Positions 15,509 to 54,992 are shown, counted from the first letter of the stretch. The stretch: DNA of 64,000 nt from an uncultured Pseudomonadales bacterium (GCA_964509365.1 CAZDWN010000004.1:32907-96906), one strand, 5' to 3'. Translations and numbers: made by a program. Notes: a model not told the origin generated them from the sequence alone.

Positions 15509-15509
15509 G

Positions 15510-24966: not shown

Positions 24967-24978
24967 AAAAAACTTTCG

Positions 24979-25905
24979 CTAACTGCTTACAGGTGCTGGT
25001 GGTACTGGCGGTTTTAGGTCAGACTGAATCGATCCAACTTCCTCTGCAATGCTTGCTGGAGCACTCGTCGTCTTTGAATCAAATATCATTTGTGACGCGG
25101 GTTGTGGCGAAATCTGTGGTGTTGCTGCTGGCACAGCGGAAACAGTTGGCGTTGGAGCAGCTATCGGAGTCGGAGTTACTTGTGCTCGTGGTACTGTTGC
25201 GGTCACCATTTCTTGAGGAGGCAACTCTGCATTGACCAGAGGTGAAGAGTACTCTGCAGCTTCTCCGACTCTGATCCCTTTGGCCCCATCAGGATTGTAA
25301 ATGGTATAAAACAACTGAATCAGTTCCTGCGTCTTTACTTGTCGTAAGAATAGCCCGATGCGGGCGAACTGATGCATGAGATGCTCTCGTCGTGGCGCGA
25401 GATTGGTGAGAGCCTTTTCGACAATTGCCGCTTTATCAAGCGGAGCTTGGTTTTTTTTACTCATCCCAGGAATCAGTGTGGATCCCGAAAGAATTCCAGC
25501 TTCAAGGGCAGTATAGGTGATCACAATAAAGAATTTTTTGTCGAGGACGTTTCGTTCTTGCACGAGTTCTTCGACAAATTGTCGATAATCTTTAATATTT
25601 TTTTTGTTGATAGGATTATATGCTTTGATTTCAGCAGTCTTGAGAAGATCTAGATATGAAGTCACATCTTTTCGGACAGACCTAATCACGATTTCAATTG
25701 AAAATGAAAGAGAATTGAGGAGCGCAGCGTAGGCGTAAATTGCTGCATCTTGCTCTTGCTCGGAGTAAAGATCGAAGTTAATCGCACTTGATTGCATCAC
25801 CATTGATACCGAGCCATCTTGCAAGATAATACAATCATTACTGATATCAAAAAGCTCAAGATATTTTTGAGTCGTCGACTGGAGGGCATTCGTTTGATTG
25901 ATCAT
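24979..25905 (-). CDS. T4SS-associated hypothetical protein with Pro/Thr/Ala-rich C-terminal tail
   Basis: 308 aa, no TM. Sits between the PrgI-like and VirB4 genes with 4-nt and 12-nt spacing. Confidence 0.5.
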   Translation of the reverse strand: MINQTNALQSTTQKYLELFDISNDCIILQDGSVSMVMQSSAINFDLYSEQEQDAAIYAYAALLNSLSFSIEIVIRSVRKDVTSYLDLLKTAEIKAYNPINKKNIKDYRQFVEELVQERNVLDKKFFIVITYTALEAGILSGSTLIPGMSKKNQAPLDKAAIVEKALTNLAPRREHLMHQFARIGLFLRQVKTQELIQLFYTIYNPDGAKGIRVGEAAEYSSPLVNAELPPQEMVTATVPRAQVTPTPIAAPTPTVSAVPAATPQISPQPASQMIFDSKTTSAPASIAEEVGSIQSDLKPPVPPAPVSS

Positions 25906-27036: not shown

Positions 27037-27597
27037 CTAATAGGTCTCTTCGGCTGTTTGCGAGAGATCTTTTCCAATAGTGCTGAAAAAATCGGCTACC
27101 GTCATCGGCGTAAATCTCCAAATCTCAAACGTTGTTCCGTCATCATTTCTCGCAAAGGCAATCCCTTGCGTTGCAAATATTCTCAGCGGAAAGACGTGAC
27201 CTTGTTGCTTGGTATATCCCGTGGCCTCAGGTGCTCCGAGAGACGTGTACAGCTCTTCGTATTTCTTTGGCTGATTGATGTCAACTCGCTCGATCGAGTA
27301 GGAAAGCGTATCTCCATTGAGGACAAATTGAGTGGGGAATGTCTTGTAATCTGAAGGGTAGTCGAGAGTCTTCGTCGTCCCATTCACGTCTGTCTTTATT
27401 GGACTTCCAAATGCATTGGTAATGTCGGTCTCCATGGATTTTCCAGGTGTTACACCTTGAACGACGTTTGGTGCAGGTGTCGCCGCAGGCGCCTGATCCG
27501 TCTGAAGTTTCGGGGTGAAGTATCGCAGGACTATTGTCCCGATTAAAATCAAGATAAGGAGCAGGATATACCAGTATTTCAGCAATATTTTTCTCAT
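27037..27597 (-). CDS. Membrane-anchored hypothetical protein
   Basis: Start at MRKILLKYWYILLLILILIG (27597). Single N-terminal TM. Confidence 0.45.
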   Translation of the reverse strand: MRKILLKYWYILLLILILIGTIVLRYFTPKLQTDQAPAATPAPNVVQGVTPGKSMETDITNAFGSPIKTDVNGTTKTLDYPSDYKTFPTQFVLNGDTLSYSIERVDINQPKKYEELYTSLGAPEATGYTKQQGHVFPLRIFATQGIAFARNDDGTTFEIWRFTPMTVADFFSTIGKDLSQTAEETY

Positions 27598-27608
27598 AAC
27601 ACTTACTC

Positions 27609-40351: not shown

Positions 40352-42280
40352 TCAGTTGCCCCAATCATCATCACTGAATGGTAAAGGATTTGAATTTGAA
40401 CTGCTGCTGCCTTTTCCGCCTGAACCGCCTTTGTTCTGAGCTTCCGTGACTTTAGTAAGCTTATCAAGTTGCTTCGACACGTTATCTGGATCGAACAGCT
40501 GCCCATCACGAAGTCTATCAATAGTCTTAGAGACGGTAAGTCCTTTACTCCAACCAGAAGGAATATTTCTTCGCAGACCGCCTCGATCATTTCCGCGTGC
40601 ATCTTTGGCACCACTCCATATTCCGGAGAGCACTCCTTCTCCTGAACGTCGGCCATAATATGCACCCAGGGCTGCTCCAGAAATTGCTCCACCAGCAACG
40701 CCGATTGCTGGAGCTGCATATTCATTTCCGGCCGCCAATTTATTCACGAGATCTTTCGGTGAGACATCGATCTTGCCTTTCATTATGCCCTTGGTGAGCT
40801 TAAGCACTTCCGGCATTGCCAATATAGCGCCTAGCGCCAAGAGATCCTGATAATAGGCAAATCCGCCCCCTTGGTTACTGCCAAGCTGCGGAGCAGAGAA
40901 ACCGCCACTATTTGCGACTTGTCCACCTCTGGCTATGTAGTAAGCAATAAAAATAAGCAGAACTAACACTGGGAACACCATTAAGTTTTCAAGAAGTCCT
41001 TTTAGCCATGATCCAAAAGTATTCTGACCAGGTAGTGCTCCAAGCAGAAGTTGGATAGGAGCAAAAATTACTGAGAAGAAAATACCCAAGTATGCTTGGA
41101 GTAATGCAAAGAACACTCGGAACAGGGAAACTATAATTGCCACAATCAAGATCAACATAAAAATTAAACTAGCTCCAAAAGTCACCACACCTGCGACCGT
41201 AGTATTCCATCCAAGATTAACGAGAATATTGGCTACAATTCTCCCCATGCTTTCAGAAATATTACTTGAAAGACTGGTCAACTTAATACCATTGGTAAAG
41301 ATGTCATTTCTAAATGCTACGTCCGAAAGTGACTGAGGCACACCTCCTGAGTTAATTTGTCCTCCGGGGAAGAGGCCGGTAAAGATCCCGATGATCAAAT
41401 ACATGACAAGGTACATAATGTCGATCAGTAGTCCTGCTATGGCATAGGAGAATGTCACAAGCAAAAGAGAGACGATGATCTTCGGGAGGGCCTGCTGCAC
41501 CGTAACTGCCGCCTGGCCACCGATCTTACTACGGAACATGATAAGAAAACCAATGACTAAGAAAATGATGACGAAGAAAAAGTAAGCTAAATTACGAAAC
41601 AATTTCCAGAGCTCAAGAACTGGGCTGAGCGCTGAGAACCCGAGACCCTGAGCGTACGCTGGTTGTGCTCCAAATGGGTTTTGGATGCTTTGGGCCACGT
41701 ACTGCATATATTCTCCAGTACTGGCTGGCTTATTGTATAGCTTGGCAACATATCCGATGGTTGCGTCAGTCACACCTCCGACTTGGACATAATAGTTCTC
41801 AGGTTTGCCTTCCGCGTTGAGTGCGGTCATTTGAGTTTTTATACCCCCAAGAGATACAATAAAATGAGCCTCCGCAGAGCAAAACATTGATGAACATGCT
41901 TTCTCCTCTGCATTTACAGTCATCGGTACGCCTCCTTCAAACGCTTGGGAGCTTTGTTTGCCACTAGTGGCTTGCTGGAGCGTGGCATTGAGCATTTGAA
42001 TGATGGTCGGTGGTGCTTTGGCAAATGCGCCAGGTGTATACGCTGATTGGCAGGTAGCTTGTTGACACTGAGCTAAGTTACCGTAGAAGGCTCCGGCGCC
42101 ACCTTGGGTACAAGAAACATACACCGGATACAAAGGGTCAGGCTGTCCGTTCGGTCCGGTTGGGTTACTGTGTGGCACGCAGTTTGCAGGGACCTGAGCC
42201 AACGCTTGAGTATGGATGCCAAAAGCAAAGAAGAAAATGAAGAGGCTTGCGATGAGGAAACGTGTCAGTCTCATACTCAT
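40352..42280 (-). CDS. VirB6/TrbL-like polytopic T4SS membrane protein
   Basis: Signal peptide. Cys-containing periplasmic N-domain. At least 6 TM helices in the middle. Gly-rich cytoplasmic C-terminal tail. Positioned in the T4SS locus. Confidence 0.68.
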   Translation of the reverse strand: MSMRLTRFLIASLFIFFFAFGIHTQALAQVPANCVPHSNPTGPNGQPDPLYPVYVSCTQGGAGAFYGNLAQCQQATCQSAYTPGAFAKAPPTIIQMLNATLQQATSGKQSSQAFEGGVPMTVNAEEKACSSMFCSAEAHFIVSLGGIKTQMTALNAEGKPENYYVQVGGVTDATIGYVAKLYNKPASTGEYMQYVAQSIQNPFGAQPAYAQGLGFSALSPVLELWKLFRNLAYFFFVIIFLVIGFLIMFRSKIGGQAAVTVQQALPKIIVSLLLVTFSYAIAGLLIDIMYLVMYLIIGIFTGLFPGGQINSGGVPQSLSDVAFRNDIFTNGIKLTSLSSNISESMGRIVANILVNLGWNTTVAGVVTFGASLIFMLILIVAIIVSLFRVFFALLQAYLGIFFSVIFAPIQLLLGALPGQNTFGSWLKGLLENLMVFPVLVLLIFIAYYIARGGQVANSGGFSAPQLGSNQGGGFAYYQDLLALGAILAMPEVLKLTKGIMKGKIDVSPKDLVNKLAAGNEYAAPAIGVAGGAISGAALGAYYGRRSGEGVLSGIWSGAKDARGNDRGGLRRNIPSGWSKGLTVSKTIDRLRDGQLFDPDNVSKQLDKLTKVTEAQNKGGSGGKGSSSSNSNPLPFSDDDWGN

Positions 42281-42322: not shown

Positions 42323-45300
42323 TTAATACGTCGGTGCATAGAGTTCAATCGCGCATTCGCCATAGGTGAGGTTTACACCTGAAGCATTTGTACAGTTTGC
42401 ACTCGCATTCAAGATCTCACAGCTCCCATAATATGCGCCGGCTGCATTCATCCATTTCTTTTCTTCAGCGCTCGCATTCGGGTAGTTTGGAGAACAATTT
42501 GGATGAGCTTGCGCAGCGTAGTTGAATTTGAGCATTTGCGCACCGACTTTCAGAGACGCCAGCAAGTCACAAGGTGTTGATCCGGCGACTCCCGCCTGTG
42601 GCGAGTATGTACCCCAGTTGTCGTACGGTGCGCCGCACGCTTTTACCAAAACTTGCATTGCGCCGACAGCTCCGACACTGTTGGCTGTGCAGGCTACAGT
42701 AGTTTGATTATTTCTGTATGCTCGTAACGTGCTTCCACCTTCTATTTGGAGGACTCCCCAAAGATAATTGGCGGGGATACCGACACTTTGCGCTGCTTGC
42801 GCGACCAATGCTTTTAGAGGTCCCCAATCTCCGTCAGCGTGAGCTGGTAAGATTGTCGTCCCACTACAGAGAGAAGCGACAGGTGCACCAGGTGAAGAAG
42901 GCGTCCCGACTGCTCCTTGGGTACAAGCGGCAAGACCTTGCTGCAAGAATTTCTCAAATCCCGGATATTGGATCGTGGCTTTGCCGTTGTACGGTCGTGT
43001 CACATTGCAGACGACTTCCCATAGTGCTCGAGCGATTTTCCCTCCCGGGACTTGCGGATCGACGGTGACAGTTTTCTCAAGATTGAGTTGCCCTGAGAGC
43101 TTGCCATCGACAGTCTTTGTCCCTTGAGTGACTGTCCCATCAGGAAGAACGACTGGCGGGGCATTTGGATCTGGGATCGTGTAGCTCAGATCAGCTCCAT
43201 CAAATTTGGGATTGATGATGGATGTCGAGGAGCCAGTGATCTGTAGATATTTATAAGCTGCTTTTGGATTTGCAGCTCGCTCTGACTCGTACGTGATGAA
43301 ATTAAACTCTGGATGCTTGGTAATGTCTTGATAATCATAGGGAAGGAACGTCTGAAGGAACGGAGTCTCGTAGTCTGTAATGTTGCGATACTCTTCAGGC
43401 AACAATAAAAAGGTCTTAATGGTCCGATTGTCACTTCCGGGCTTGGTGGCGACCAAAGTCGCAGTCACTGGAATCTTTGCCAACTTCACAGGATCAAGCG
43501 TCCCCGCTGGGTTGATGGTGTGCACTCGTTCGGTCGCAGTCTCGCCGACCAAATCATCATGCGTACAAGCGTCTTGTCCACTCGTCGCGAACTCCGCATT
43601 GATGCGACGAACGATGGTAACTCTGGGAAGATACTCAGGGTTACTTTCCAAGATAGAGCAGCTCTCACATTTGATGCCGAGACCACTAGTTGCATTTGGC
43701 ATCGCTTTGATGAGTTTGTCGATCACAAGCGCACGTGTCTTGGCTATTTGAGTCTGGACGCTCATCGGCATGATGGAAGTGATCGTCTGCATGAATCCAC
43801 CAGTATAGGTGGGGAAGAACGTCGGCTGCTTTTCTTTTGGTTCCAGATCAGGATTGTTGTTCACTGCGTTGATATTGACCTCCGCAAATCCAGCAGGGAC
43901 ATAGACTTTGACGACTTTGATGCGATCAGTAAGGTTACGAGGATCACCGATGCCGCCATTTGCATCTTCTCCGGGAGCCAACCATACGACTCGTTTGTCG
44001 AGGTTGGTTTGCGGCGTCTCTGGTCGATCTACATAGTGGACTAAATATGCAGGTTTGAATCCTTTTGGTGTCGTCAACTCAACTTTTGAAAACGATCGAT
44101 ACCACGCCATCTCATTTTGAGTAAGCGTATCGACATTTCTGCAGCTAAAACTTTGCGGCATCTGCTCGAGGACTTTCTTATAAGTGTCGTACCTGGCATC
44201 GGCACCTGGAATTTGAGAGTAGAGTGCGCACTCTCCAGGGATCGGGGTAGGCTTTGGCGTTGCAGGGATATTTGCTGCAGCTTTCAATGCGTCGGCGTCG
44301 AGCTTGTCGTTGTAGGTGTATCCACTTCGATTGTTTTCGGTATCACACAGTTGCTTGATCGTCTGTAGATACGTAATCGTTGCTTGACACTGCTCTTGTG
44401 TCCCGATGACTTTTCTAGACACACCGTTTGCAAGCGGAGTAATCAGTGAGGAGCTCAGCGTATTTGCAGCTCCGACCAACTCTTCTTTGGTGTAGTTGGC
44501 ACTAAAAAATCCCTCAAGGTCGTCTAACCGTCTTTTTGGTTGATCGGGATTGGGGACTTGAGCGCCTTGAAAGCGAAACAGAGGAATGACGGCTTTGGTA
44601 CTATCGATGATGACATTGGCCCACACTCCAGGAATAGTGCATCTCCCATCAGGAGGATTTCCCGAGCAGTCAATCTCATACCCGGGTGGTCGATTGTTAA
44701 GTGCACTCTCATTTGAAATATCACCTTTTATTTTGAATTGATTACCACAAGTCAGCGTGTAGCCGGCCGCCATTTGACGCATTTTGTCGACATCTGGAGC
44801 CATATCTTCGATACCAGGGTAGACAAAGACCTGTCGTTTTCCTCCTCCACATTTCTCGGGTTTTTCGACTGCGAGATCGCCTTGGTGCCAATACTCACAG
44901 ATGGCAGGGACGGTATGATACCAATCGCTGTTGCCAGGGTCTGGGCTCGTTGGATTTCGCAAAAAACCCACCTTGGCGACGGCAGGCTGATCATTATTTT
45001 GAACGTAAAAGTCTTGGACACAATCAAAGTCCTTACAAGTCGTGATCCCGAACTCGGTGATATAGAGTTGGGCAGTGGATAAATTGCGTCCAGCGAGGCT
45101 ATTTATTTTACTTAAGACCCACTGACCACTGTTGACTGTGCATCGGGTCGCTTCATACGCGCCACATCCGCCGGTTTGATAAACGTTTGCAAATACGGCG
45201 CTAATCGCTGCTTTGTTTATTCCGGATGAAAAAATTTGATTGAGTGTTGTCGCGGCGTCATAATCGTCATTGATCGTATCCATGGTCGAGATGCCAAGTG

Positions 45301-45793
45301 GGCCTTTGCCATTCCAAGCAGAAGCAAATGTGTTAAAAAGCTGGGCATACTTTGTATAGTCACAATTCTTCCATTCACCATTGACTGGGTTTTGGTTATT
45401 TATTTCGTTACCGATGGTCACCGGTGTGCCGGCGGGGATTGCTCCAGCGAGCGTCGTCATGTCTTGTGTACTTGTATTGCAGTCAATATTGATACGAGCG
45501 ATCGCCAAGTATCCGCTTGAGAGGAGACTGACACCGGATCCATTCGGATAGACCATCACCACGACGGGGTAGGTGGGGCTTTTTAATCCTGAAGAAGTTA
45601 ACTTGTCTAAGACCTTTTTTTGAGCACCCTCATCACCTTGAATGAGGTGAGTACCGACTTTATCGACTTGAGTAGTTCCTTGGGCCCTGGTCGCAGTTGA
45701 GTCAAATAAAAACAGCCCTACGGCGAGGAGCAAAATGGGGAAGAAAAAGGCAAACGCACGGCAGAGTCGTCGCATGAATATAGTATACAACAC
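42323..45793 (-). CDS. Giant (1156 aa) secreted cell-wall hydrolase. N-terminal clan GH-A glycosidase-like domain plus C-terminal lysozyme-like/lytic transglycosylase (VirB1-like) domain.
   Basis: Signal peptide. IGNEIN (acid/base NE) and LYITEFG (nucleophile TE) about 110 aa apart. C-terminal LQIEGG...GAVGAMQV resembling SLT motifs (ES...GLMQ). Confidence 0.65.
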   Translation of the reverse strand: MLYTIFMRRLCRAFAFFFPILLLAVGLFLFDSTATRAQGTTQVDKVGTHLIQGDEGAQKKVLDKLTSSGLKSPTYPVVVMVYPNGSGVSLLSSGYLAIARINIDCNTSTQDMTTLAGAIPAGTPVTIGNEINNQNPVNGEWKNCDYTKYAQLFNTFASAWNGKGPLGISTMDTINDDYDAATTLNQIFSSGINKAAISAVFANVYQTGGCGAYEATRCTVNSGQWVLSKINSLAGRNLSTAQLYITEFGITTCKDFDCVQDFYVQNNDQPAVAKVGFLRNPTSPDPGNSDWYHTVPAICEYWHQGDLAVEKPEKCGGGKRQVFVYPGIEDMAPDVDKMRQMAAGYTLTCGNQFKIKGDISNESALNNRPPGYEIDCSGNPPDGRCTIPGVWANVIIDSTKAVIPLFRFQGAQVPNPDQPKRRLDDLEGFFSANYTKEELVGAANTLSSSLITPLANGVSRKVIGTQEQCQATITYLQTIKQLCDTENNRSGYTYNDKLDADALKAAANIPATPKPTPIPGECALYSQIPGADARYDTYKKVLEQMPQSFSCRNVDTLTQNEMAWYRSFSKVELTTPKGFKPAYLVHYVDRPETPQTNLDKRVVWLAPGEDANGGIGDPRNLTDRIKVVKVYVPAGFAEVNINAVNNNPDLEPKEKQPTFFPTYTGGFMQTITSIMPMSVQTQIAKTRALVIDKLIKAMPNATSGLGIKCESCSILESNPEYLPRVTIVRRINAEFATSGQDACTHDDLVGETATERVHTINPAGTLDPVKLAKIPVTATLVATKPGSDNRTIKTFLLLPEEYRNITDYETPFLQTFLPYDYQDITKHPEFNFITYESERAANPKAAYKYLQITGSSTSIINPKFDGADLSYTIPDPNAPPVVLPDGTVTQGTKTVDGKLSGQLNLEKTVTVDPQVPGGKIARALWEVVCNVTRPYNGKATIQYPGFEKFLQQGLAACTQGAVGTPSSPGAPVASLCSGTTILPAHADGDWGPLKALVAQAAQSVGIPANYLWGVLQIEGGSTLRAYRNNQTTVACTANSVGAVGAMQVLVKACGAPYDNWGTYSPQAGVAGSTPCDLLASLKVGAQMLKFNYAAQAHPNCSPNYPNASAEEKKWMNAAGAYYGSCEILNASANCTNASGVNLTYGECAIELYAPTY

Positions 45794-45799
45794 CTCACC

Positions 45800-46213
45800 T
45801 TAGAGGGAGATCTTAAACTGAGTAAGCGCGGTGATGCCAGTGAAATCGGAGATGAATCGCAAGATGACATAGGAAGCCAAGGCGACCACAATTCCAATGA
45901 TCGCATACGTAATCGCGTTTTTCCCAGCGTCGATCCCTTTGCTATTGGATCCTGCAGTCATGTATTGAAAAGAACCCATGAGGAACATAATAAATGCCGC
46001 TATCCCGATGATCGTGATAAAGACAGCAAGCACGTTTGACACCAGACAGCCAATGCCCTGAATCGTGGCGACATCTGCTGCCGCCGTGGATGTACCGACA
46101 CACGCACCGGTCCACGCAGTTGTCTGTGCTTGAGCTCTCGGTACAATCGAAAGCACAAAAGCAATCAGTGACGAGAAGTAGGCGGTTTGGAATATTTTTC
46201 GATTTGTCATCAT
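45800..46213 (-). CDS. T4SS pilin-like protein (TrbC/VirB2-type, PF18895-like), paralog 1
   Basis: Signal peptide (MMTNRKIFQTAYFSSLIAFVLSIVPRAQA), then two hydrophobic helices flanking a short polar loop (YMTAGSNSKGIDAGKNAI). Confidence 0.7.
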   Translation of the reverse strand: MMTNRKIFQTAYFSSLIAFVLSIVPRAQAQTTAWTGACVGTSTAAADVATIQGIGCLVSNVLAVFITIIGIAAFIMFLMGSFQYMTAGSNSKGIDAGKNAITYAIIGIVVALASYVILRFISDFTGITALTQFKISL

Positions 46214-46250
46214 AGCAAGATTATAGCATTCCCGAGGTCGACTGCGTATC

Positions 46251-46278
46251 AAAAAAGCCCCCGGGGATACCGGGGGCC
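46251..46278 (-). terminator. Rho-independent terminator downstream of pilin paralog 2
   Basis: 8-bp GC stem (GCCCCCGG/CCGGGGGC) followed by a T6 run on the minus strand. Confidence 0.65.
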
Positions 46279-46300
46279 TTCTCATCACACCAATCAACAA

Positions 46301-46690
46301 TTAATATGCTGATGGGAGAGTGATGTTTGTTCCAATTGAAATTCCGAAGAAGTTCTGCAGCACAACTGAGATTGCCAATGCTGACGCAACAATCGCCAAA
46401 CCAATGATTGCATTGGTGATCTTTTGTCGAGCACTTTCAGTCTTACTCTTGTCTCCGCCAGCGGTCAGCCACTCAATACCACCCCAGATGAGGTAGATGA
46501 ACACCAACAAGCCGACGATACCGAGAGTGAACTTCAACAGCGAACTGATCAGTTTCCCGATGTCGTTGATCTTAAAGCCAGCTCCTGCGGCGTCGACGTT
46601 GATTGGAGTATCAACAGCGAATGCTGTTGAGGCTGCAAGTGCGAGAGTCGTGACACCTGTCGAAATCCCAGTGATTAATTTTTTGACCAT
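46301..46690 (-). CDS. T4SS pilin-like protein, paralog 2
   Basis: Signal peptide, then helix-WLTAGGDKSK-loop-helix (IYLIWGGIEWLTAGGDKSKTESARQKITNAIIGLAIV). Confidence 0.75.
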   Translation of the reverse strand: MVKKLITGISTGVTTLALAASTAFAVDTPINVDAAGAGFKINDIGKLISSLLKFTLGIVGLLVFIYLIWGGIEWLTAGGDKSKTESARQKITNAIIGLAIVASALAISVVLQNFFGISIGTNITLPSAY

Positions 46691-46776
46691 AGCATTCTCC
46701 TTTATAGAATATCGATATGCTACTAATGATATTCTATCATACTAGGGGAGGTAAAGGGGGGAATCAAGGGTGGATT

Positions 46777-47451
46777 TTACTGACAGCCTCGGATGTCCAC
46801 ACCAGGAAGTAGTGTCGTCCCGCCCAAACAGCCACATGGCTCAAGATGCGGATAGTTGAGGCCTCCCGCTCCAGCTGGCATACAGCGGACCGAGGCAGCT
46901 CCACTGTTTGAACAATAGCCGCCGGCACCGTTGTCACTGACAGTACTTCCAATAGCAATATTCCCGGCACACGTGTTCGCGACTGGCGTCGTCCCTGTAG
47001 TAGTGTTGCTTCCTCCTGGGGCAGGTTGCGTGGTGGTCGTCCCACCTCCTCCATTGCCTCCGCCGATGGTGACTTTGGTCGAAAGACCAAGGAAATTTAT
47101 GAGTATCGTATAGAACACGAATACGCATGCAAGGATGGCTAAGCCAATAATCGATTGCGTGATGCGACTGCGTCCTGCTTCGATCTTTGCTTTATCGCCC
47201 CCAGAGAGCAACCACTCTGCGCCGCCCCAAATAAGATAGACGAACAGAATAAAGCCACTGATGCCTGCGACCCACTTTGAGACGGAGCCAAGGAGTATTC
47301 CAAGATTTGAGACGAGATACCCAGACGTCGCCGGGGCAACGGTCACGGAATCATCATAGCCAGGAGGAAGTCCTTGCGCAGTGATCACACTTGGCAGAAA
47401 AATAGCACTGCCAATCAGAATTGCCAAAATAAGTGTGAACTTTTTTATCAT
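46777..47451 (-). CDS. T4SS pilin-like protein, paralog 3, with Gly/Thr- and Cys-rich C-terminal extension
   Basis: Pilin core VYLIWGGAEWLLSGGDKAKIEAGRSRITQSIIGLAIL plus about 100 aa G/T/C-rich tail. Confidence 0.72.
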   Translation of the reverse strand: MIKKFTLILAILIGSAIFLPSVITAQGLPPGYDDSVTVAPATSGYLVSNLGILLGSVSKWVAGISGFILFVYLIWGGAEWLLSGGDKAKIEAGRSRITQSIIGLAILACVFVFYTILINFLGLSTKVTIGGGNGGGGTTTTQPAPGGSNTTTGTTPVANTCAGNIAIGSTVSDNGAGGYCSNSGAASVRCMPAGAGGLNYPHLEPCGCLGGTTLLPGVDIRGCQ

Positions 47452-47456
47452 AGAGA

Positions 47457-47819
47457 CTAGGCTCTGTACTCATGCGTTGGAATACTTCCCATTCCGTAGT
47501 TGCCGATGTTAAATCGTGTGCGCAGACCAAGGAAATTGAGAACAAGCCCAAAGATCAAGAAGACGGATGCCAATATGACGAGTCCGATCACGCCCTGCGT
47601 CATCATACCTCGTGCTTCTTCGATCTTTCCTTTCTCTCCTCCAGCAGTAATCCAGCTAAATGCACCGTAGAGTAAGAAGTAGAGGACGGCGATCGTCCCA
47701 ACCGTGAGAATGGCGCTTGCGCCAATTTGTAACAATTGATCTAGAGTGCCAATAGGAGATATCAGCGCAGTTGATCCGCCAATGTTGAGTGGTTGAGTCT
47801 GGGCAAGCAGTATAAACAT
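47457..47819 (-). CDS. T4SS pilin-like protein, paralog 4
   Basis: Core LYGAFSWITAGGEKGKIEEARGMMTQGVIGLVIL. Confidence 0.72.
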   Translation of the reverse strand: MFILLAQTQPLNIGGSTALISPIGTLDQLLQIGASAILTVGTIAVLYFLLYGAFSWITAGGEKGKIEEARGMMTQGVIGLVILASVFLIFGLVLNFLGLRTRFNIGNYGMGSIPTHEYRA

Positions 47820-47830
47820 AAAACTACTTT

Positions 47831-48169
47831 CTATACATTATTCGCAAATTGTAGATTCAATAGATCGATTCCTAATACTTTGCCTACGAAGACGCTGATC
47901 GCAACGGTGCCCGCTAGGACGAGCATACCGATGACACTTTGAGTCATGCGATCTCTGGCTGCCTGTACTTTGCCTTTTTCACCACCCGCAGTGATCCATT
48001 CAAGTGCCCCAATGATCAACATAATAAGGAGTGCTAAGCCACCGAGAGTGATTGCCGTTCGCCAGAGCGTAATGATGATACTGGCCAGAGCCGTGCTCGG
48101 AGCGGCGGCAGCAGAACCAAAAACAGGAGCGACGGCCGGGTTGGTAATCTGTGCAATAAGTGTAAACAT
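47831..48169 (-). CDS. T4SS pilin-like protein, paralog 5
   Basis: Core IIGALEWITAGGEKGKVQAARDRMTQSVIGMLVL. Confidence 0.72.
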   Translation of the reverse strand: MFTLIAQITNPAVAPVFGSAAAAPSTALASIIITLWRTAITLGGLALLIMLIIGALEWITAGGEKGKVQAARDRMTQSVIGMLVLAGTVAISVFVGKVLGIDLLNLQFANNV

Positions 48170-48173
48170 ACAT

Positions 48174-48548
48174 TTACCTCGGTAAAATTGTTCCTATCAT
48201 TTTCACTGGGTCAAGTAAATCTATGCCAAGTACTCTGCCAACGACACCGGCAATACTATAAGCAGCGATCACTACGACAAGTCCAAGTGCGGCTTGAGTC
48301 ATCTGGTTGCGAGCCGCTTCGACTTTGCCTTTGTCCCCACCAGCTGTAATCCAGGACAGACCAGCAAAGATCAAGTAAATCAAAAACATGATACCGGCGA
48401 GACCAGTGACGAATCCAATGATATTACTGATGAAAAGGGCAATTGGCGTGCCCACACCAACTGCACCTGCGCCAGGAGAAAAAACCGCGGTAGGTGGATC
48501 TAGTTGACCAAGTTGAAGTGTGCCTGCGGCTGCAAGTAGTTGTGACAT
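48174..48548 (-). CDS. T4SS pilin-like protein, paralog 6
   Basis: Core IFAGLSWITAGGDKGKVEAARNQMTQAALGLVVV. Confidence 0.72.
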   Translation of the reverse strand: MSQLLAAAGTLQLGQLDPPTAVFSPGAGAVGVGTPIALFISNIIGFVTGLAGIMFLIYLIFAGLSWITAGGDKGKVEAARNQMTQAALGLVVVIAAYSIAGVVGRVLGIDLLDPVKMIGTILPR

Positions 48549-48551
48549 ACA

Positions 48552-48908
48552 TTATGGCAATGCCGTCGGGATTGTCGGCCTAAGAATAAACATAGAATCA
48601 CCAAACAAAAGCAAACTCACGAGCGCTGTTATTAAGAATGCACCCGCGATAATCACGAGACCAATCAAACTGTACGTCATCTGATTCATGGCCTGTTCAG
48701 TGGCTTTCGCATTCCCGCCTGAACTTAAATACGTGTAACCGGCCGAGATAATATTGAATAGTCCAAAAAGACCGGCGACTACGGTAACGAGTTTAATGAT
48801 ATTTGAGATAAAGACCAATAGTCCCGCCGGACCGGGTGTGAACTTATCTACTCCTGGCGGGGTAGTCACTGAGCCAAATATTTGAAAAACCATGAAGCTA
48901 AGCATCAT
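48552..48908 (-). CDS. T4SS pilin-like protein, paralog 7
   Basis: Core ISAGYTYLSSGGNAKATEQAMNQMTYSLIGLVII. Confidence 0.68.
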   Translation of the reverse strand: MMLSFMVFQIFGSVTTPPGVDKFTPGPAGLLVFISNIIKLVTVVAGLFGLFNIISAGYTYLSSGGNAKATEQAMNQMTYSLIGLVIIAGAFLITALVSLLLFGDSMFILRPTIPTALP

Positions 48909-48920
48909 ATGTATTTTGTA

Positions 48921-49274
48921 TTATAGCGTCGCATTCAATATTGGTACACCGGTGAATGCCTGAACGATCTGAATAATCCAATACGCAGCAAAAATAATGA
49001 TAAAACCGATGATCGCTCCCATGATCTGATTCTTGCCAGATTCCACGCTCTTGGCATTGCCTCCGGAGGCAACGATCGAAAAGCCGCCACCGATTATCAG
49101 GAAAAGCAGTACCAACCCGGAAATGACAAAGATGATGGGGATCAAGAGATTGAGAAACGATGCGACAGAAGGATATGAGCTGGCAATTGTGCCACCTTTT
49201 TCATTGATTTTGAGCATGGTCCCCAGGCTCTGTGCCGGTGCTCCATTTCCACTGCCTAAAGCAAGTAAACTCAT
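48921..49274 (-). CDS. T4SS pilin-like protein, paralog 8
   Basis: Core IIGGGFSIVASGGNAKSVESGKNQIMGAIIGFIII. Start at MSLLALGS (49274), avoiding overlap with the divergent sigma gene. Confidence 0.65.
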   Translation of the reverse strand: MSLLALGSGNGAPAQSLGTMLKINEKGGTIASSYPSVASFLNLLIPIIFVISGLVLLFLIIGGGFSIVASGGNAKSVESGKNQIMGAIIGFIIIFAAYWIIQIVQAFTGVPILNATL

Positions 49275-49290
49275 ACCAGTAGTATACAAT

Positions 49291-49854
49291 ATGTTCATGC
49301 AGTTTAGAAATGAGCAAGACCTCATCGTAAAGCTCAAGGCGGGCGAAAGTTCGAGCGTCAACATCTGGTATGCGACCTCAAAAGACGAGTTACTTGCATT
49401 TTTCCTCAAGAGAATGAGTAGTGAAGCTGATGCGCAGGAGCTCGTCCATGATACGTATCTGTCTTGTCTTTCTTCGCTTCCACTTTTTCGTGGTGATTCC
49501 GGATTATGGACATTTATGGTGTCGATTGCTCGTCACGAGCTCGCTGACTACTGGCGCAAACGATACGCCAAGAAAGCTATTGCGCTTTTACCGTTTGGGC
49601 AAGAACTTCTTGATTCCGTCGAGGGTGATGCTGATGAGCACTCCTGGGTACTCGATCACGGGCGGGAAATATCCCATATCCTGCATCAATTACCTGAGGA
49701 AATCTCAGAATTGCTGCAACTCAAATATGTCGACGGCTTGTCTGTAAAAGAGCTTGCGACTCACTACGGGTTGAGTTTTGCGGCGATGCAAAGTAAATTG
49801 CATCGAGCCAAAGCGGTATTTAAAGAACAGTATGAACGAACCACAATTTCTTGA
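49291..49854 (+). CDS. ECF-type RNA polymerase sigma factor (sigma-70 regions 2 and 4)
   Basis: Region 2 ELVHDTYLSCL...ARHELADYWRKRY. Region 4 LLQLKYVDGLSVKELATHYGLSFAAMQSKLHRAK. Start at Met 49291, not the tool's 49033. Confidence 0.8.
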   Translation: MFMQFRNEQDLIVKLKAGESSSVNIWYATSKDELLAFFLKRMSSEADAQELVHDTYLSCLSSLPLFRGDSGLWTFMVSIARHELADYWRKRYAKKAIALLPFGQELLDSVEGDADEHSWVLDHGREISHILHQLPEEISELLQLKYVDGLSVKELATHYGLSFAAMQSKLHRAKAVFKEQYERTTIS

Positions 49855-50044
49855 GGAACTACAACACAAGGCAAAAGTACAGGCAGCGATAGAACACAGT
49901 TCGCCACTTCCACAGTGGTCGAGGCCCTTTGTATCGATCGTAGGTCTTCACTATTGGCAGTTTTTGCTAGGCGTCTCATTTGTCGTCGCGATGATCATTT
50001 GTATTTGGTTCTTCCCAGGAGTCTATGCCCACAATTCTCTCTAA
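49832..50044 (+). CDS. Putative anti-sigma factor (small single-TM protein)
   Basis: 71 aa. Overlaps the sigma gene's 3' end by 23 nt. Cytoplasmic N-terminus then one TM (FVSIVGLHYWQFLLGVSFVVAMIICIWFF). Confidence 0.42.
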   Translation: MNEPQFLEELQHKAKVQAAIEHSSPLPQWSRPFVSIVGLHYWQFLLGVSFVVAMIICIWFFPGVYAHNSL

Positions 50045-50339
50045 AAGCACTGGCTTAGGATATGGAGTGATGGCTACGATCCTCGGGGTACTTACGCATC
50101 CATACCAAACCATGCAAAAAGTGGTTTCAAAAGATATCCCAATTGGATTTGTCTTTTTCCCAGCGGTTTTTTGCCTCATCGGTTGGCTTTTCGCTCATGA
50201 GTTATCGTCTCTACTGCTCGCCATTCTTCCTCTGATCGGATTTTGGTGGTTCCTCGAGTGTTGGTGGCTGTCTTTTTGGGGTCTTTGGCAAGTCACCCTC
50301 ATCTATCTCTTCTGGCGCTTTTCTTCGAGTTTGCATTGA
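50025..50339 (+). CDS. Hypothetical small membrane protein (3 TM)
   Basis: Hydrophobic ORF directly after the anti-sigma candidate. Confidence 0.35.
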   Translation: MPTILSKSTGLGYGVMATILGVLTHPYQTMQKVVSKDIPIGFVFFPAVFCLIGWLFAHELSSLLLAILPLIGFWWFLECWWLSFWGLWQVTLIYLFWRFSSSLH

Positions 50340-50606
50340 ATGAATCTTCAGTGAATGATTTTCAGCAAAAATTGCGACTATTGTCTTGTCTATGCAAATT
50401 TCACGCCATTGGCGACTGAACGCTGTGCGCTACCGTCTCCAAGGTGTCCGCTATGAAAATGGTGAGACTAGTCTACAAAATAGGCCCGGTGGTCCATCTG
50501 AGGCGGAAGTTGAGTGGGCAGTGACTGTTGCCCGAAATTTATCAAAATTGAATGATTTCAGAGATTTGAACCCTGAGGGCGCTCGTAATGGAAAAGAAAG
50601 TGCGGC

Positions 50607-51146
50607 ATGAATCTCGATCAAGTCATATTAGTCGACGAACTTGATCATGAAATTGGTGTGATGGATAAGCTTGAGGCACACAGGGGAGCAGGAAAATTAC
50701 ATCGAGCCAGTAGTGTGTTTTTATTCAACGCCGGAGGAAAGCTGTTGATCCAGCAGCGAAGCAGCAAAAAGATAGTCGGTGCGGGTCAATGGGCGAATAC
50801 GTGTTGCGGTAATGTACGGCCAGGTGAATCGTATCTTGAATGTGCACAACGTCGATTGCATGAAGAGTTAGGAATAAGTATTGGTAGAGACGAGTCTCTG
50901 ACTCGTCTCCAAGAAATCACCAAGTTCATGTATCAGACGCAATGTAACGACGAGTTTAGTGAGTATGAGATGGATACCGTTTTTGTCGGCAAATACGATG
51001 GAGAAGTCTATCCAAATCCAGATGAAGTTGCAGAGGTTAAGTGGATCGATTTAAAAGATTTATTACGACAGATTCCGCTTGCTCCTTGGGTACAAATTAT
51101 GGGAAATAAAAGTATTCTAGTAAAAATTCAGGAGAAAATATGTTGA
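50607..51146 (+). CDS. idi: Isopentenyl-diphosphate delta-isomerase, type 1 (Nudix)
   Basis: VILVDELDHEIG, HRASSVFLFN, WANTCCGN and Nudix box RRLHEELGI. Confidence 0.8.
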   Translation: MNLDQVILVDELDHEIGVMDKLEAHRGAGKLHRASSVFLFNAGGKLLIQQRSSKKIVGAGQWANTCCGNVRPGESYLECAQRRLHEELGISIGRDESLTRLQEITKFMYQTQCNDEFSEYEMDTVFVGKYDGEVYPNPDEVAEVKWIDLKDLLRQIPLAPWVQIMGNKSILVKIQEKIC

Positions 51147-52831: not shown

Positions 52832-53416
52832 CTACAAGATGCTGATTCCAAAAATAGTTTGCACCAGTTGTGCGATCCAATAGGAGGAGAAGAGCAAAAT
52901 AAAGCCGATGATCGCTGCATTGATGCGCTGTTTCCCCGCTTCTTGAGATTTCGGATTCGCTGCTCCAGTCAACATCTCAAATCCTCCCCATATCAACATA
53001 ATAAACAGGATCAACCCTCCAAATGTCATCAAATAGGGAAGCAATCGGCTGAGAATTCCACGAGGAGTGGTCAAATCTGCATTTGGCGTCCCTCCAAAAA
53101 TTGATGCATTTAAACTGTCCAATGTCGCCGCATTAAGACCAACGCCTCCTCCTCCAGGTGCTTGACCAAATTGTTGGCAAAGCTGAGATGGTGTGGGTGG
53201 GCCGCAATAATACGCAGTGGTTCCGTCGGGGCACGTAGTCGTTTGAAGCGTACAAGTCGCTGGAATTGGATTACCGTTTGGACCAGTAATCGTCTGCAGG
53301 CAGGTAATTGGAGCAGTTGACCAGCTACCACAATTTCCTGCTGCGGCGCTGACTCGTTGAGTAGTTGAAAGAAGGACGAGTAAGGCAAGTACGCAGCTAA
53401 TACAGAATCTTCTCAT
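52832..53416 (-). CDS. T4SS pilin-like protein, paralog 9, with Cys-rich N-terminal extension
   Basis: Signal peptide, about 100 aa Cys/Pro-rich region, then pilin core LIWGGFEMLTGAANPKSQEAGKQRINAAIIGFILL. Confidence 0.7.
   Translation of the reverse strand: MRRFCISCVLALLVLLSTTQRVSAAAGNCGSWSTAPITCLQTITGPNGNPIPATCTLQTTTCPDGTTAYYCGPPTPSQLCQQFGQAPGGGGVGLNAATLDSLNASIFGGTPNADLTTPRGILSRLLPYLMTFGGLILFIMLIWGGFEMLTGAANPKSQEAGKQRINAAIIGFILLFSSYWIAQLVQTIFGISIL
52971..53039. repeat. Near-identical 69-bp segment (66/69) shared with 53596..53664
   Basis: caacatctcaaatcctccccatatcaacataataaacaggatcaaccctccaaatgtcatcaaataggg compared with copy 2. Flanks diverge but stay protein-similar. Confidence 0.8.
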
Positions 53417-53457
53417 ACCTGTAGCGTACAGGATTTTGCGTGCCTTGAAAAGCCGAT

Positions 53458-53799
53458 TTATAGAATAGAAATGCCGAAGATCGTTTGCACCAGTTGTGCC
53501 AACCAGTAAGACGAGAAGAGTAAGATAAAGCCAATGAGTGCCGACGTGATCCTCGATTTGCCTGCTTGTTGGGCTTTTGGGTCGGCAGCTCCTCCCAACA
53601 TCTCAAACCCTCCCCAGATCAACATGATAAACAGGATCAACCCTCCAAATGTCATCAAATAGGGGAGTAGTTCTGAGAGGATGCCTCTTGGCGTGCTAAA
53701 AGTAGTCGCCTTGGCTGCATCAGGTACGAGCTCAGTATTGAGAGCATCCAGACACCCCTTCGTCAACGTGTCACAGGCAGCTGCTATGAGATTTGGCAT
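53458..53799 (-). CDS. T4SS pilin-like protein, paralog 10 (recent duplicate of paralog 9 core)
   Basis: C-terminal 77 aa about 85 percent identical to paralog 9 (PRGILSELLPYLMTFGGLILFIMLIWGGFEML...). Confidence 0.7.
   Translation of the reverse strand: MPNLIAAACDTLTKGCLDALNTELVPDAAKATTFSTPRGILSELLPYLMTFGGLILFIMLIWGGFEMLGGAADPKAQQAGKSRITSALIGFILLFSSYWLAQLVQTIFGISIL
53596..53664. repeat. Second copy of the 69-bp near-identical segment
   Basis: See 52971..53039. Confidence 0.8.
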
Positions 53800-53822
53800 A
53801 TATAAGGGTATTTTACCATTCT

Positions 53823-54992
53823 TTATGTCCCAAAGCCTGGAATCTGGAGAATTGTCACTCCGATGAAGCGCAGAATGATGATCGAGAAAATGACAAACAA
53901 GAGACCCATGATCGCACTCGTGATCATTTCTTGCCCCTCTTTGACTCGCGTCGGATCGCCACTACTTGTCGTCAGTAGGAATGCGCCGTACAGGATTGAG
54001 AGAAGCACGAAGCCTCCGGAGATCCCCATGCCAATGCGAATGAAAGACGTGACAATGCCTTCCTTTGTTGTTCCCACACATCCAAACGCAGTCCAGTACT
54101 CCCCATTGTTAAAACAATTTTGGCATAGAGTCTTATCGTTACCGGTTGCCTGATCACACAAAACGAAAGGAGCCGCAGTCGTCCCTGTTCCTGAATTACC
54201 GTTTCCTGGATTTGTAGGGACTGTTGTCCCACTATTTGGATCATAGGCAAGATTAATTGAGCAGTATCCTTGGATTCCTCCAGCTTGAATTATCGAGATT
54301 GTTGTCGTTTTCAAAGGATCAATAGCGAACGATTTTGAGACAGTTCCGGAACTGCTTGTGAAATTACTAGAAAACTGGTACGTCGCACCCGTCTGTGCAA
54401 GACGAATCTGGTATGACTTGGAGTCTTTTATGCCGCTGGCGTTGTATGTCGTCGTAACCGAAGTTGTACTAGCAAGGATTGGATTTGGTGAATAGGCTAA
54501 ACTGCTGCAATCAGGAGTAATCACTGTGCTAGATATATCACTGATGCTGAACGCATTCTCAAACTTGCACAAATCTTGAGCTGTAGAGCCAATTGTTCCT
54601 CGCAGGACCAGGTAGTAGTCTGCAGACGTTCCGGCATTTGCAGGCTTTATCGTATCTATTGGCACTGGAGCTGTAACGGTCTTTCCATCAGTCGAAAGTG
54701 TGGCTGTTCTCTTTGAACAATAGCCGAATGTATCGCCATTCAAACATGCCCAAATTTCAAAATTAGACGCGGTTGACTGCCAATTTGGCGTTGTTGGGGT
54801 AAAAGTGAATTGAACGTTTGAACCCGGCCCGTAGTCTGCAGGTACTGTTGAATCGGAAGAATAAGTCTTTGTCGTCCCAGCAGCTGGACTCAAAGAACAG
54901 TTAAAAACCTGAGCAGAAACAATGTAATCGGAGTGCAAGAAAACAAGAGACAGAATCAAGACTACAAAGATAGCTTTTATTTTGGCCCCCAT
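53823..54992 (-). CDS. Large pilin-like protein (389 aa). Signal peptide, about 280-aa Ser/Thr/Cys-rich extracellular domain (adhesin-like), C-terminal T4SS-pilin module.
   Basis: C-terminus LLSILYGAFLLTTSSGDPTRVKEGQEMITSAIMGLLFVIF matches the pilin core pattern. Eight-plus Cys in the N-domain. Confidence 0.62.
   Translation of the reverse strand: MGAKIKAIFVVLILSLVFLHSDYIVSAQVFNCSLSPAAGTTKTYSSDSTVPADYGPGSNVQFTFTPTTPNWQSTASNFEIWACLNGDTFGYCSKRTATLSTDGKTVTAPVPIDTIKPANAGTSADYYLVLRGTIGSTAQDLCKFENAFSISDISSTVITPDCSSLAYSPNPILASTTSVTTTYNASGIKDSKSYQIRLAQTGATYQFSSNFTSSSGTVSKSFAIDPLKTTTISIIQAGGIQGYCSINLAYDPNSGTTVPTNPGNGNSGTGTTAAPFVLCDQATGNDKTLCQNCFNNGEYWTAFGCVGTTKEGIVTSFIRIGMGISGGFVLLSILYGAFLLTTSSGDPTRVKEGQEMITSAIMGLLFVIFSIIILRFIGVTILQIPGFGT

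Follow-up and report, generated by a model that had tools for sequence, protein, structure and literature searches.

Organization of the pilin gene arrays

We analyzed a 64,000-nucleotide (nt) stretch of DNA (GCA_964509365.1 CAZDWN010000004.1:32907-96906; hereafter the window), which carries two arrays of paralogous genes, pil1 to pil11, whose products are related to the pilins of type IV secretion systems (T4SSs). All 11 open reading frames (ORFs) lie on the minus strand, eight of them consecutively at 45800-49274 (pil1-pil8) and three at 52832-54992 (pil9-pil11). A profile of the shared core, run against the six-frame translation of the window, recovered exactly these 11 ORFs with E-values of 1e-22 to 2e-34, the ORF ranked 12th having an E-value of 0.7. 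The search returned the same eight plus three genes that an earlier note on this DNA had listed.

The window is chromosomal and located near the replication origin, as it contains dnaA (4441-5931) and dnaN (6241-7344), both on the plus strand. The genes of a T4SS core lie ~17 kb from dnaN, and the pilin arrays ~40-48 kb from it. The nearest homologs of pil6 come from metagenome-assembled genomes (MAGs) of Woesebacteria, Cerribacteria and Microgenomates, and syntenic loci are found in MAGs named as Woesebacteria, Cerribacteria, Pacebacteria, Microgenomates and Collierbacteria. Judged by the taxa named for these homologs and loci, the host is a Microgenomatia-type bacterium of the candidate phyla radiation (CPR)/Patescibacteria.

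In the larger array, pil1 (45800-46213; 137 amino acids, aa) and pil2 (46301-46690; 129 aa) encode proteins with a Sec signal peptide, which in pil1 ends in …AQA and is followed by QT, while pil3 (46777-47451; 224 aa) combines a signal peptide with a Gly/Thr/Cys-rich C-terminal tail of ~100 aa. The next five genes encode proteins devoid of a signal peptide: pil4 (47457-47819; 120 aa; MFILLAQTQP…), pil5 (47831-48169; 112 aa; MFTLIAQITNP…), pil6 (48174-48548; 124 aa; MSQLLAAAG…), pil7 (48552-48908; 118 aa; MMLSFMVFQIFG…) and pil8 (48921-49274; 117 aa). The smaller array is composed of pil9 (52832-53416; 194 aa; signal peptide and a Cys-rich N-terminal domain of ~95 aa), pil10 (53458-53799; 113 aa; no signal peptide) and pil11 (53823-54992; 389 aa), whose product has a signal peptide, a Ser/Thr-rich N-domain of ~240 aa, a Cys-rich linker and a C-terminal hairpin. 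The extensions noticed earlier on pil3, pil9 and pil11 are real; that of pil11 was measured as an N-terminal domain of ~290 aa. Longer versions of pil1 (166 aa) and pil8 (162 aa) beginning at TTG codons were rejected as unsupported by orthologs in favor of the starts at 46213 and 49274, both of which are ortholog-supported.

Assignment to the T4SS pilin family

Each of the 11 paralogs matches the T4SS_pilin family PF18895, whose gathering cut-off is 26.6 bits. Seven reach this score, namely pil2 (42.9 bits, the highest of the set), pil10 (39.8), pil9 (38.5), pil6 (38.4), pil3 (34.7), pil1 (31.1) and pil7 (29.0). The remaining four, pil8 (26.2 bits), pil4 (25.6, just below the cut-off), pil5 (22.7) and pil11 (17.3; E = 0.005), are linked to the family by the paralog profile with E-values not exceeding 1e-22 (1e-22 for pil11), and orthologs of pil5, pil8 and pil11 carry a precomputed PF18895 match, mostly weak or faint. 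Nearly all of the 94 homologs of pil6 are annotated with PF18895, and a protein identical to the pil6 product is present in the protein database (P0001). Model NF045849, describing a 'pilin-like conjugal transfer protein', was matched by nine of the 11 paralogs at E ≤ 1, all below its cut-off of 40 bits (best: pil6, 28.1 bits, E = 1.2e-6); the paralogs are distant relatives, not members, of that family. The pilin family itself is huge: the eleven-paralog profile matched 88,968 clusters (50% identity) in a library of 1.84 billion proteins.

Alignment of the paralogs revealed a common core of ~85 residues, in which a polar loop separates two hydrophobic helices. A hydropathy scan distinguished two transmembrane (TM)-length segments in all 11 proteins, with a loop of ~19 residues containing 1-4 Lys/Arg. 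The helix-loop-helix architecture described in the earlier note is therefore common to the whole set. The loop consensus given there, W-[IL]-[TS]-A-G-G-[DE]-K-[GS]-K, has a narrower range, since it is strict in pil2, pil4, pil5 and pil6 and nearly so in pil3, but degenerate in the other six (e.g. YMTAGSNSKG, IVASGGNAKS and MLTGAANPKS). The AlphaFold2 model of pil6, built from a 38-sequence alignment, has helices at residues 29-68 and 73-106 and a turn at AGGD, with a predicted local distance difference test (pLDDT) value of ~90 for the hairpin.

Searches with pil6 against structures and plasmids were less specific. The pil6-family profile found no pilin among PDB sequences, and the Foldseek search of the pil6 model against PDB gave no match at E ≤ 0.001 (best E = 0.8), the fold being too simple to discriminate; a conjugation pilin of the archaeon Aeropyrum (8dfu) ranked 27th (E = 4.8). 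A tblastn search of 72,556 plasmids with pil6 yielded two weak matches, both situated in conjugation loci. The first is a haloarchaeal 'pilin' gene accompanied by genes for a 'conjugal transfer protein' and for a coupling-protein-like protein with a TraM-recognition domain. The second, on a Lacticaseibacillus plasmid, is a small ORF that precedes VirD4-like and pLS20_p028-family genes.

Proteins of this kind could in principle be small membrane proteins of a generic sort (holin-like, or unrelated with two TM segments) whose resemblance to pilins stems only from their hydrophobic composition, and the earlier note had allowed for this should the hairpin or a match to pilin profiles be lacking. 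A helical hairpin is a very simple fold, and four paralogs stay below the PF18895 cut-off. However, the hairpin is predicted and PF18895 is matched, in seven cases above the curated threshold, and the polar loop motif with its flanks separates the family by many orders of magnitude from the other ORFs of the window. Furthermore, a conjugation-type membrane protein ends the operon, T4SS core genes lie in the window, and both plasmid matches, though weak, are embedded in conjugation loci. This explanation can be regarded as effectively excluded, and the initial classification of the proteins as TrbC/VirB2-type, PF18895-like pilins is upheld.

Signal peptides and predicted membrane topology

Hydropathy analysis assigned Sec-type signal peptides to pil1, pil2, pil3, pil9 and pil11 only. 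The other six paralogs (pil4-pil8 and pil10, rather than the four noted before) start with an unusual leader, M-x-x-L-[LI]-A-Q, which is conserved in their orthologs. Upstream extension of these six ORFs is not possible, because stop codons occur within a few codons. Their N-tails are nearly uncharged, with no Lys/Arg in pil4 (whose tail comprises 30 aa), pil5 and pil6. Under the positive-inside rule, the basic loops together with the near-uncharged N-tails point to a cytoplasmic loop and to both termini lying outside. This is also the orientation of VirB2- and TraA-type pilins in the membrane.

A possible origin of the short leader is indicated by the pil5 ortholog of a distant related locus, L007 (L007 10376-10765), which has a full signal peptide (ending in …VHA and followed by QITNTAVP). 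As its cleavage region aligns with the leader of the window pil5 (MFTLIAQITNPAVAP), the M-x-x-L-[LI]-A-Q leader looks like a vestigial signal-peptide C-region. The coat protein of phage Pf3 provides a precedent for YidC-type insertion, in which a short uncharged N-tail is translocated without a signal peptide. The window includes a yidC gene (2761-3534).

Conservation and divergence of the paralogs

The window was compared with six related loci, from a Woesebacteria MAG, a Cerribacteria MAG, three metagenome contigs with DNA and one JGI contig without DNA. The whole arrangement is common to all six. One side of each locus is composed of a divergent gene for an extracytoplasmic function (ECF) sigma factor, 7-8 pilin genes, a gene for a ~1200-aa protein (~950-1640 aa in the two most distant loci) and a gene for a ~600-aa membrane protein; the other side contains uppS, followed by 2-3 pilin genes with N-terminal extensions and a SpoIID-domain gene. 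BLAST identified 1:1 positional orthologs of the pilins in five other genomes, with 58-91% identity in the four closer ones (L001, L004, L005 and L006) and 36-55% in L007. Orthologs of pil1 occur in every compared locus, those of pil4 share 78-80% identity, and those of pil7 share 58-78% in the closer loci and 41% in L007. In L006, the orthologs of pil2 (dN 0.06), pil10 and pil4 are 91%, 83% and 78% identical, respectively, while the second-best, paralogous matches reach 30-45%.

Core identity between paralogs within the window is 15-48%, with the exception of the pil9/pil10 pair (83-85%). High divergence apart from one duplication, as reported in the earlier note, is thus confirmed, but the duplication is not recent. 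The cores of pil9 and pil10 are 85% identical as proteins and only 75% as DNA, and pil9, with its Cys-rich domain, is also present in the distant L001 (66% identity of the N-domain), so the duplication is old and the subfamily slow-evolving.

A scan of GTDB species representatives identified 80 loci, all in CPR genomes, of which 45 with complete 10-kb flanks were used in a survey of gene content. Every one of these has 6-12 pilin ORFs (median 8). The number of genes in the main same-strand array is seven in 23 loci, eight in 13, nine in four, six in three, and 10 and 11 in one each, which means that 36 of the 45 have a seven- or eight-gene array. The order of classes, 8-7-6-5-(4/3/2-like)-2-1, is kept in nearly all 45 species, and the modal string 8-7-6-5-2-2-1 recurs exactly 15 times. 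The earlier suggestion of long-standing diversification is strongly supported by this collinear 1:1 orthology.

In comparisons of the window with its two closest relatives, synonymous sites have reached saturation (proportion of synonymous differences, pS, 0.6-0.85), so dN/dS could not be estimated, and selection was judged from the proportion of non-synonymous differences (pN) relative to pS and to neighboring genes. The pN values of the pilin genes, 0.06-0.34, are 1-3 times those of the adjacent uppS, isopentenyl-phosphate-kinase-like and Nudix genes. As pN is low relative to pS and near that of these neighbors, the comparison across relatives proposed in the earlier note gave no indication of diversifying selection at the level of whole genes.

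Only accessory parts show turnover. Among the close loci, pil3 is found only in the window, L005 and L006, and its tail module is homologous to a tail carried by the pil4 ortholog of L001. The pil9 gene is absent from L005 and L006. In pil11, the last 119 aa (Cys-rich linker and hairpin) are 71-76% identical to the orthologs of L001 and L005, whereas no similarity to the corresponding domains of the orthologs could be detected for the ~240-aa N-domain; ortholog lengths in L001, L004 and L005 range from 265 to 480 aa.

Antigenic variation or host adaptation has been suggested as the role of Patescibacterial arrays in a published survey (Quiñonero-Coronel et al. 2025, PMC12102498), and antigenic variation was also raised in the earlier note. 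The paralogs would then be alternative major pilins, forming a cassette for antigenic variation or adaptation to host strains. Their strong mutual divergence, the unrecognizably different pil11 ectodomain and the patchy presence of pil3 and pil9 among relatives fit such a role. In 45 species, however, each class is represented by a 1:1 ortholog at the same place in the array. Similarity between orthologs far exceeds that between paralogs, and the level of non-synonymous change is low and comparable to that of neighboring housekeeping genes. In addition, the gaps between the genes from pil8 to pil3 are only 3-12 nt, so these genes are probably co-expressed rather than switched, and no silent truncated copies or repeats were noticed, although no dedicated repeat search was run. 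Purifying selection and the fixed gene order disfavor antigenic variation, which we regard as improbable for this locus.

The same data argue for the paralogs being ancient, non-redundant subunits. Since the classes are ancient and collinear and each ortholog is under purifying selection, they most likely act as non-redundant components of a single assembly. The constant order and the 1:1 orthology narrow the hypotheses in this direction, and of the possibilities raised in the earlier note, that of distinct major, minor and tip subunits is favored.

Predicted transcription units of the larger array

A generic scan of the region for sigma-70 promoters and terminators gave no enrichment over shuffled sequences; the promoter and terminator assignments presented here are for this reason based on conservation across genomes. 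They lead us to infer three transcription units with promoter function in the larger array. The first begins with pil8 and continues to pil3. A -10 box, TATACT (49281-49286, minus strand), lies 6 nt upstream of the pil8 ATG and overlaps a divergent TACAAT box of the sigma factor gene. The distance between the pil8 start (49274, minus strand) and that of the sigma gene (49291 or 49297, plus strand) is merely 16-22 bp, and the two -10-like boxes are placed back to back. At the pil8 -10 position, the window shares attgTATACTac with L001, L005 and L006, while L004 and L007 have TATAAT there; a TATACT/TATAAT box precedes the pil8 ATG by 6-10 nt in six loci. In this region (window 49272-49299), the sequence attgtatactac is conserved in four genomes. 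The pil8 box is predicted to act as the promoter of the array and to give a leaderless transcript. Apparent TATAAT boxes preceding pil6 and pil7 were discounted as promoters, as they overlap the last codons and the stop codon of the preceding gene.

The second unit seems to consist of pil2 alone. Its start codon is preceded by an 86-nt spacer containing a conserved TGnTAGAAT element and a 5′ untranslated region of ~35 nt. The putative promoter and untranslated region (46691-46739, minus strand) include TGATAGAAT at 46731-46739, a perfect palindrome, ATATCGATAT, at 46709-46718, and a Shine-Dalgarno sequence, AAGGAG, at 46697-46702, which is the only strong one in the main eight-gene array. Over the 40 nt preceding the pil2 ATG, the window, L005 and L006 do not differ at any position, despite the saturation of synonymous sites. 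The palindrome could be an operator or an RNA element. Downstream of pil2, a predicted intrinsic terminator (46251-46283, minus strand) is composed of a GC-rich hairpin (-37.7 kcal/mol, z -7.3) and a T run, and it has been preserved in L001, L005 and L006 through compensatory changes. On the basis of these signals, pil2 appears to be monocistronic.

The third unit contains pil1, the gene for a 1156-aa protein and the gene for a 640-aa membrane protein, in this order. An extended -10 element, TGCTATAAT (46220-46228, minus strand), is placed 6 nt upstream of the pil1 ATG, and TGnTATAAT precedes this codon by 6-9 nt in L001, L004, L005, L006 and L007. The pil1 transcript is predicted to be leaderless.

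Further minus-strand sites of the more general form TGnTAnAAT are located at 53810-53818, 60626-60634, 61368-61376 and 61565-61573. The first of them, TGGTAAAAT, lies 10 nt upstream of the pil10 ATG and is conserved in L005 and L006. In front of pil1, pil10 and the gene at 60669-61361, the motif is separated from the ATG by 6-10 nt, and it lies 9-10 nt upstream of the 5′ ends of mature tmRNA and tRNA-Ser. Its presence before these two stable RNAs supports both a promoter function and the notion of leaderless mRNAs, and its positions suggest that such mRNAs are common in this genome. Across the window the motif is not over-represented (12 sites versus 8.9 expected); its positions alone are informative.

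T4SS core and large genes following the array

The T4SS core (23038-26975, minus strand) encodes a VirB4-like ATPase (23038-24966), a TrsD-like protein (24979-25905; NF045975) and a PrgI/VirB3-like protein (25902-26975). Matches within this cluster are to PF19044, PF12846, PF03135, PF12666, NF041427 (TrsD) and NF045975, and the core is of the monoderm type. VirB5, VirB7, VirB9 and VirB10 were not found among the window ORFs scanned. Three further minus-strand genes adjoin that of the PrgI/VirB3-like protein. Two of them (27037-27630 and 31598-32233) encode single-pass proteins of 197 and 211 aa, respectively, and the third (27609-31238) a 1209-aa protein that has no N-terminal signal and contains hydrophobic segments at residues 723-865. 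None of the three products matched Pfam or NCBIfam, and they are probably further T4SS components.

The last gene of the pil1 unit (40352-42280, minus strand) encodes the 640-aa polytopic membrane protein, in which hydropathy analysis distinguished a signal peptide, an ectodomain, ~6 TM segments and a tail. It belongs to a CPR family (p653) of 462 members devoid of Pfam annotation. Among 30 members, NF045848 (MMCAP2_0566 conjugal transfer protein) was matched by 10 (best E = 2e-6), NF045889 (Mbov_0396 TM protein of an integrative and conjugative element, ICE) by nine and NF045890 (pLS20_p028) by three; the link of the family to conjugation membrane proteins comes solely from these sub-threshold NCBIfam matches of its members. 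An hhalign comparison of the p653 family with the pLS20_p028-family protein of a Lacticaseibacillus plasmid was negative (probability 0.7%). VirB6 homologs are described as 'scarce' in Microgenomatia, 'suggesting extreme sequence divergence' (PMC12102498), and the 640-aa protein is a candidate for the VirB6 analogue of which such surveys find few.

Between this gene and pil1 lies a gene for a secreted protein of 1150-1156 aa (42323-45793, minus strand), which follows pil1, is predicted to be co-transcribed with it and is conserved in position in L001, L004, L005 and L006. Searches of Pfam, NCBIfam and PDB sequences with the 1156-aa protein gave no match. In its AlphaFold2 model, residues 45-315 form a (beta/alpha)8 barrel with pLDDT ~80-90, except for two 10-residue blocks below 70, and the rest of the model is poor. 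The barrel resembles glycoside hydrolases (GH) of clan GH-A in Foldseek searches (GH128, E = 6e-5; GH79, E = 2e-4; also GH10 and GH5). It contains a GNE.NN motif, in which Gly-Asn-Glu and two Asn residues are invariant in a five-ortholog alignment, and ITEFG follows ~117 residues on. Evidence from the model is moderate and compatible with an accessory enzyme cleaving envelope or host polysaccharides. A lytic-transglycosylase-like motif in the C-terminus was dropped as a candidate: sequence searches were empty, the AlphaFold2 model is only moderate there, and there was no lysozyme-like protein in the Foldseek top 50. In L007, the 953-aa protein encoded after the array (L007 11952-14813) matches pil11 in BLAST (33% identity over 134 aa) and may end in a pilin-like hairpin.

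Proposed function of the pilin set

We consider it probable that the 11 genes encode VirB2-like PF18895 hairpin pilins of a chromosomal monoderm-type T4SS and that these are non-redundant parts of one assembly. On insertion into the cytoplasmic membrane, each pilin would adopt a two-helix hairpin, its termini facing outward and its basic loop the cytoplasm. For five of them, entry would be through Sec signal peptides, and the short, near-uncharged N-tails of the other six are compatible with YidC-type insertion. By analogy with VirB2 systems, with which the proteins share homology, and because the pilin array of Southlakia is essential (Wang et al. 2023, PMC10633639), the T4SS may then recruit the hairpins into a heteromeric structure, envelope-spanning or extracellular, for contact with host cells. 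The recruiting machinery would comprise VirB4/TrsD, the PrgI/VirB3-like protein and the 640-aa membrane protein.

Within such a structure, pil2 would be the bulk or major subunit. It is the likeliest one because it has its own promoter, Shine-Dalgarno sequence and terminator and is the best conserved. The pil8-pil3 unit could supply accessory (minor) pilins, pil3, pil9 and pil11 may display their extra domains outward, and pil1 would be co-expressed with the large secreted glycosidase-like protein and the candidate channel subunit.

The hairpins might instead form a heteromeric ring or bundle that remains in the cytoplasmic membrane as a T4SS channel or platform and is never built into a filament. 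This possibility gains some support from the top matches of the family profile (P0244, P0360, P0344, P0233 and P0226), polypeptides in which 2-17 hairpin modules are arranged in tandem, e.g. a 1775-aa protein with 17 modules, and which recall fused hairpin rings. The linkers between the modules look natural and not like products of read-through, and one cluster includes a Candidatus Altiarchaeales protein; such fusions suggest that adjacent hairpins pack together. However, because a hairpin has both its ends on one side, fused modules are also compatible with a filament bearing surface-exposed linkers. The fixed size and order of the array, at 7-8 classes, would suit a defined stoichiometry, pili are usually missing from monoderm T4SSs (PMC12102498, PMC12857230), and the fold searches produced no specific match to pilus subunits, yet the annotated relatives belong only to pilin families (PF18895, PF04956 and NF045849). 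The large ectodomains of pil3, pil9 and pil11 also suggest surface display, and the monocistronic, strongly signaled pil2 looks like the gene of an abundant structural subunit. A purely membrane-embedded assembly is considered unlikely.

Several observations weigh against the preferred interpretation of the genes as T4SS pilins acting in one assembly. Scores to the TrbC/VirB2 family PF04956 (cut-off 27.9 bits) are all sub-threshold, i.e. pil6 24.5 bits (E = 3e-5), pil9 20.4 and pil10 15.9, with none for the other paralogs, although some pil6 orthologs carry a precomputed PF04956 match. The VirB4 cluster, on the same strand as the pilins, is 21 kb off and does not share their operon, and on the substrate side neither a coupling protein nor a relaxase was found among the window ORFs scanned. 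Gram-positive-type T4SSs normally lack pili (PMC12102498, PMC12857230), and no T4SS pilus has been reported for any Patescibacterium (PMC12102498, PMC12857230, PMC11665869). The fused polypeptides agree with an assembly embedded in the membrane no less well than with a filament. Finally, pil2 is a candidate major pilin on the basis of expression signals and conservation only.

A more detailed version of the preferred interpretation, which we offer tentatively and as a doubtful extension of it, treats the locus as the parts list for a single heteromeric monoderm T4SS of fixed composition. It would have ~7 ancient classes in an unvarying gene order, with pil2 as bulk subunit, pil8-pil3 as a priming or minor complex, the fast-changing, pilin-anchored ectodomains of pil11, pil9 and pil3 as host-specific adhesins and the 640-aa protein as the 'missing' VirB6. 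If this were true, the polypeptides with up to 17 fused hairpins could be taken as a Rosetta-stone sign of side-by-side packing.

Comparison with known pilin systems

Arrays of VirB2-like genes have been surveyed in 3,035 Patescibacterial genomes with PF18895 and PF04956, which yielded 441 arrays of 2-11 genes, notably in Microgenomatia (Quiñonero-Coronel et al. 2025, PMC12102498). An array was defined there as at least two VirB2-like genes, in tandem or with one non-pilin gene between them, in a genome with VirB4; the window, with 8 + 3 contiguous genes and a VirB4 gene, falls under this definition. It resembles the arrays of that survey and of Southlakia epibionticum ML1 in the PF18895 family, the phylum (Microgenomatia being the class richest in arrays), tandem arrangement, ~25% mean identity, a size within 2-11 genes, and chromosomal position near dnaA together with VirB4, TrsD and PrgI/VirB3 and with no relaxase detected in the window. 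In Southlakia the array is placed inside the T4SS cluster, whereas here it lies ~21 kb from virB4. Compared with these arrays, nothing differs categorically. The array is an instance of an already described phenomenon, standard for this lineage.

In the one genetically tractable Patescibacterium the T4SS and the pilin array are essential for epibiotic life, with a function called 'completely unknown' (PMC11665869). In a 2025 review, such arrays are treated as the first indication that a Gram-positive-type T4SS might build a pilus, which would be unprecedented (PMC12857230). The window leaves the published picture of the Patescibacterial T4SS unchanged, and its added value is comparative detail. 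Relative to the available portions of PMC10633639 and PMC12102498, the details added are the collinear 1:1 orthology, the three transcription units with monocistronic pil2, the paralogs without signal peptide and the conserved genes for the 1156-aa and 640-aa proteins. Among the genes, pil2 stands out as the candidate major pilin, and the 640-aa protein is a candidate for the VirB6 that HMM surveys seldom find in Microgenomatia.

The VirB2/TrbC/TraA pilins of diderms (PF04956; T-pilus, F-pilus and RP4) are likewise small two-helix hairpins with a short, polar, basic loop, a membrane pool with termini outside and an associated VirB4 ATPase. The window proteins differ from them in their sub-threshold PF04956 scores, in the lack of a long cleavable leader in six paralogs, in their number (eleven instead of one) and in the monoderm envelope; the pil6 searches detected no similarity to solved pilins, for a fold too simple to discriminate. 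With the Mbov_0395/MMCAP2_0565 protein of Mycoplasma ICEs, whose neighbors are the TM protein Mbov_0396 and the VirB4 protein Mbov_0397, the window system shares a monoderm, conjugation-type setting and matches to NF045849 (nine of the 11 paralogs), to NF045889 and NF045848 (p653 family) and to NF045975 (TrsD-like protein). All scores are far below the equivalog cut-offs (e.g. 28 versus 40 bits), and the Mycoplasma ICE is mobile with a single pilin-like gene, while the present system is chromosomal and the window yielded no relaxase.

Several tandem, divergent virB2 copies by or within a T4SS locus are also known from Bartonella and Anaplasma phagocytophilum. Those arrays are read as antigenic or host-range variation (PMC12102498), unlike the present one with its fixed order, orthology and purifying selection. 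Pilin systems of the prepilin-peptidase type offer another parallel, as they combine one abundant subunit gene with its own signals and an operon of divergent accessory pilins, some with extra domains. Their subunits have an N-terminal helix and a globular head, whereas the window proteins have a hairpin fold, no prepilin-peptidase motif and a different assembly machine.

Neighboring genes

The ECF-type sigma factor gene (49291-49854, plus strand; PF07638, PF04542 and PF08281) is divergent from pil8 and is a neighbor of the array in all six compared loci. It is followed by three small plus-strand ORFs (49778-50610) encoding an 88-aa protein with one C-terminal TM segment, a 104-aa protein with several TM segments and a soluble 74-aa protein. 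Small genes of similar size are also found 3′ of the sigma gene in related loci. The 88-aa protein may be an anti-sigma factor.

Two genes are situated between the T4SS core and the pilin operon. The first (35594-36571, minus strand) encodes a membrane-anchored protein with a lamin-tail domain, and the adjoining one (36637-40257, plus strand) a 1206-aa protein with no family match and no hydrophobic segment. Elsewhere in the window (11981-17861, minus strand), a GH18 chitinase-like gene is located between two genes encoding class A penicillin-binding proteins (transglycosylase and transpeptidase).

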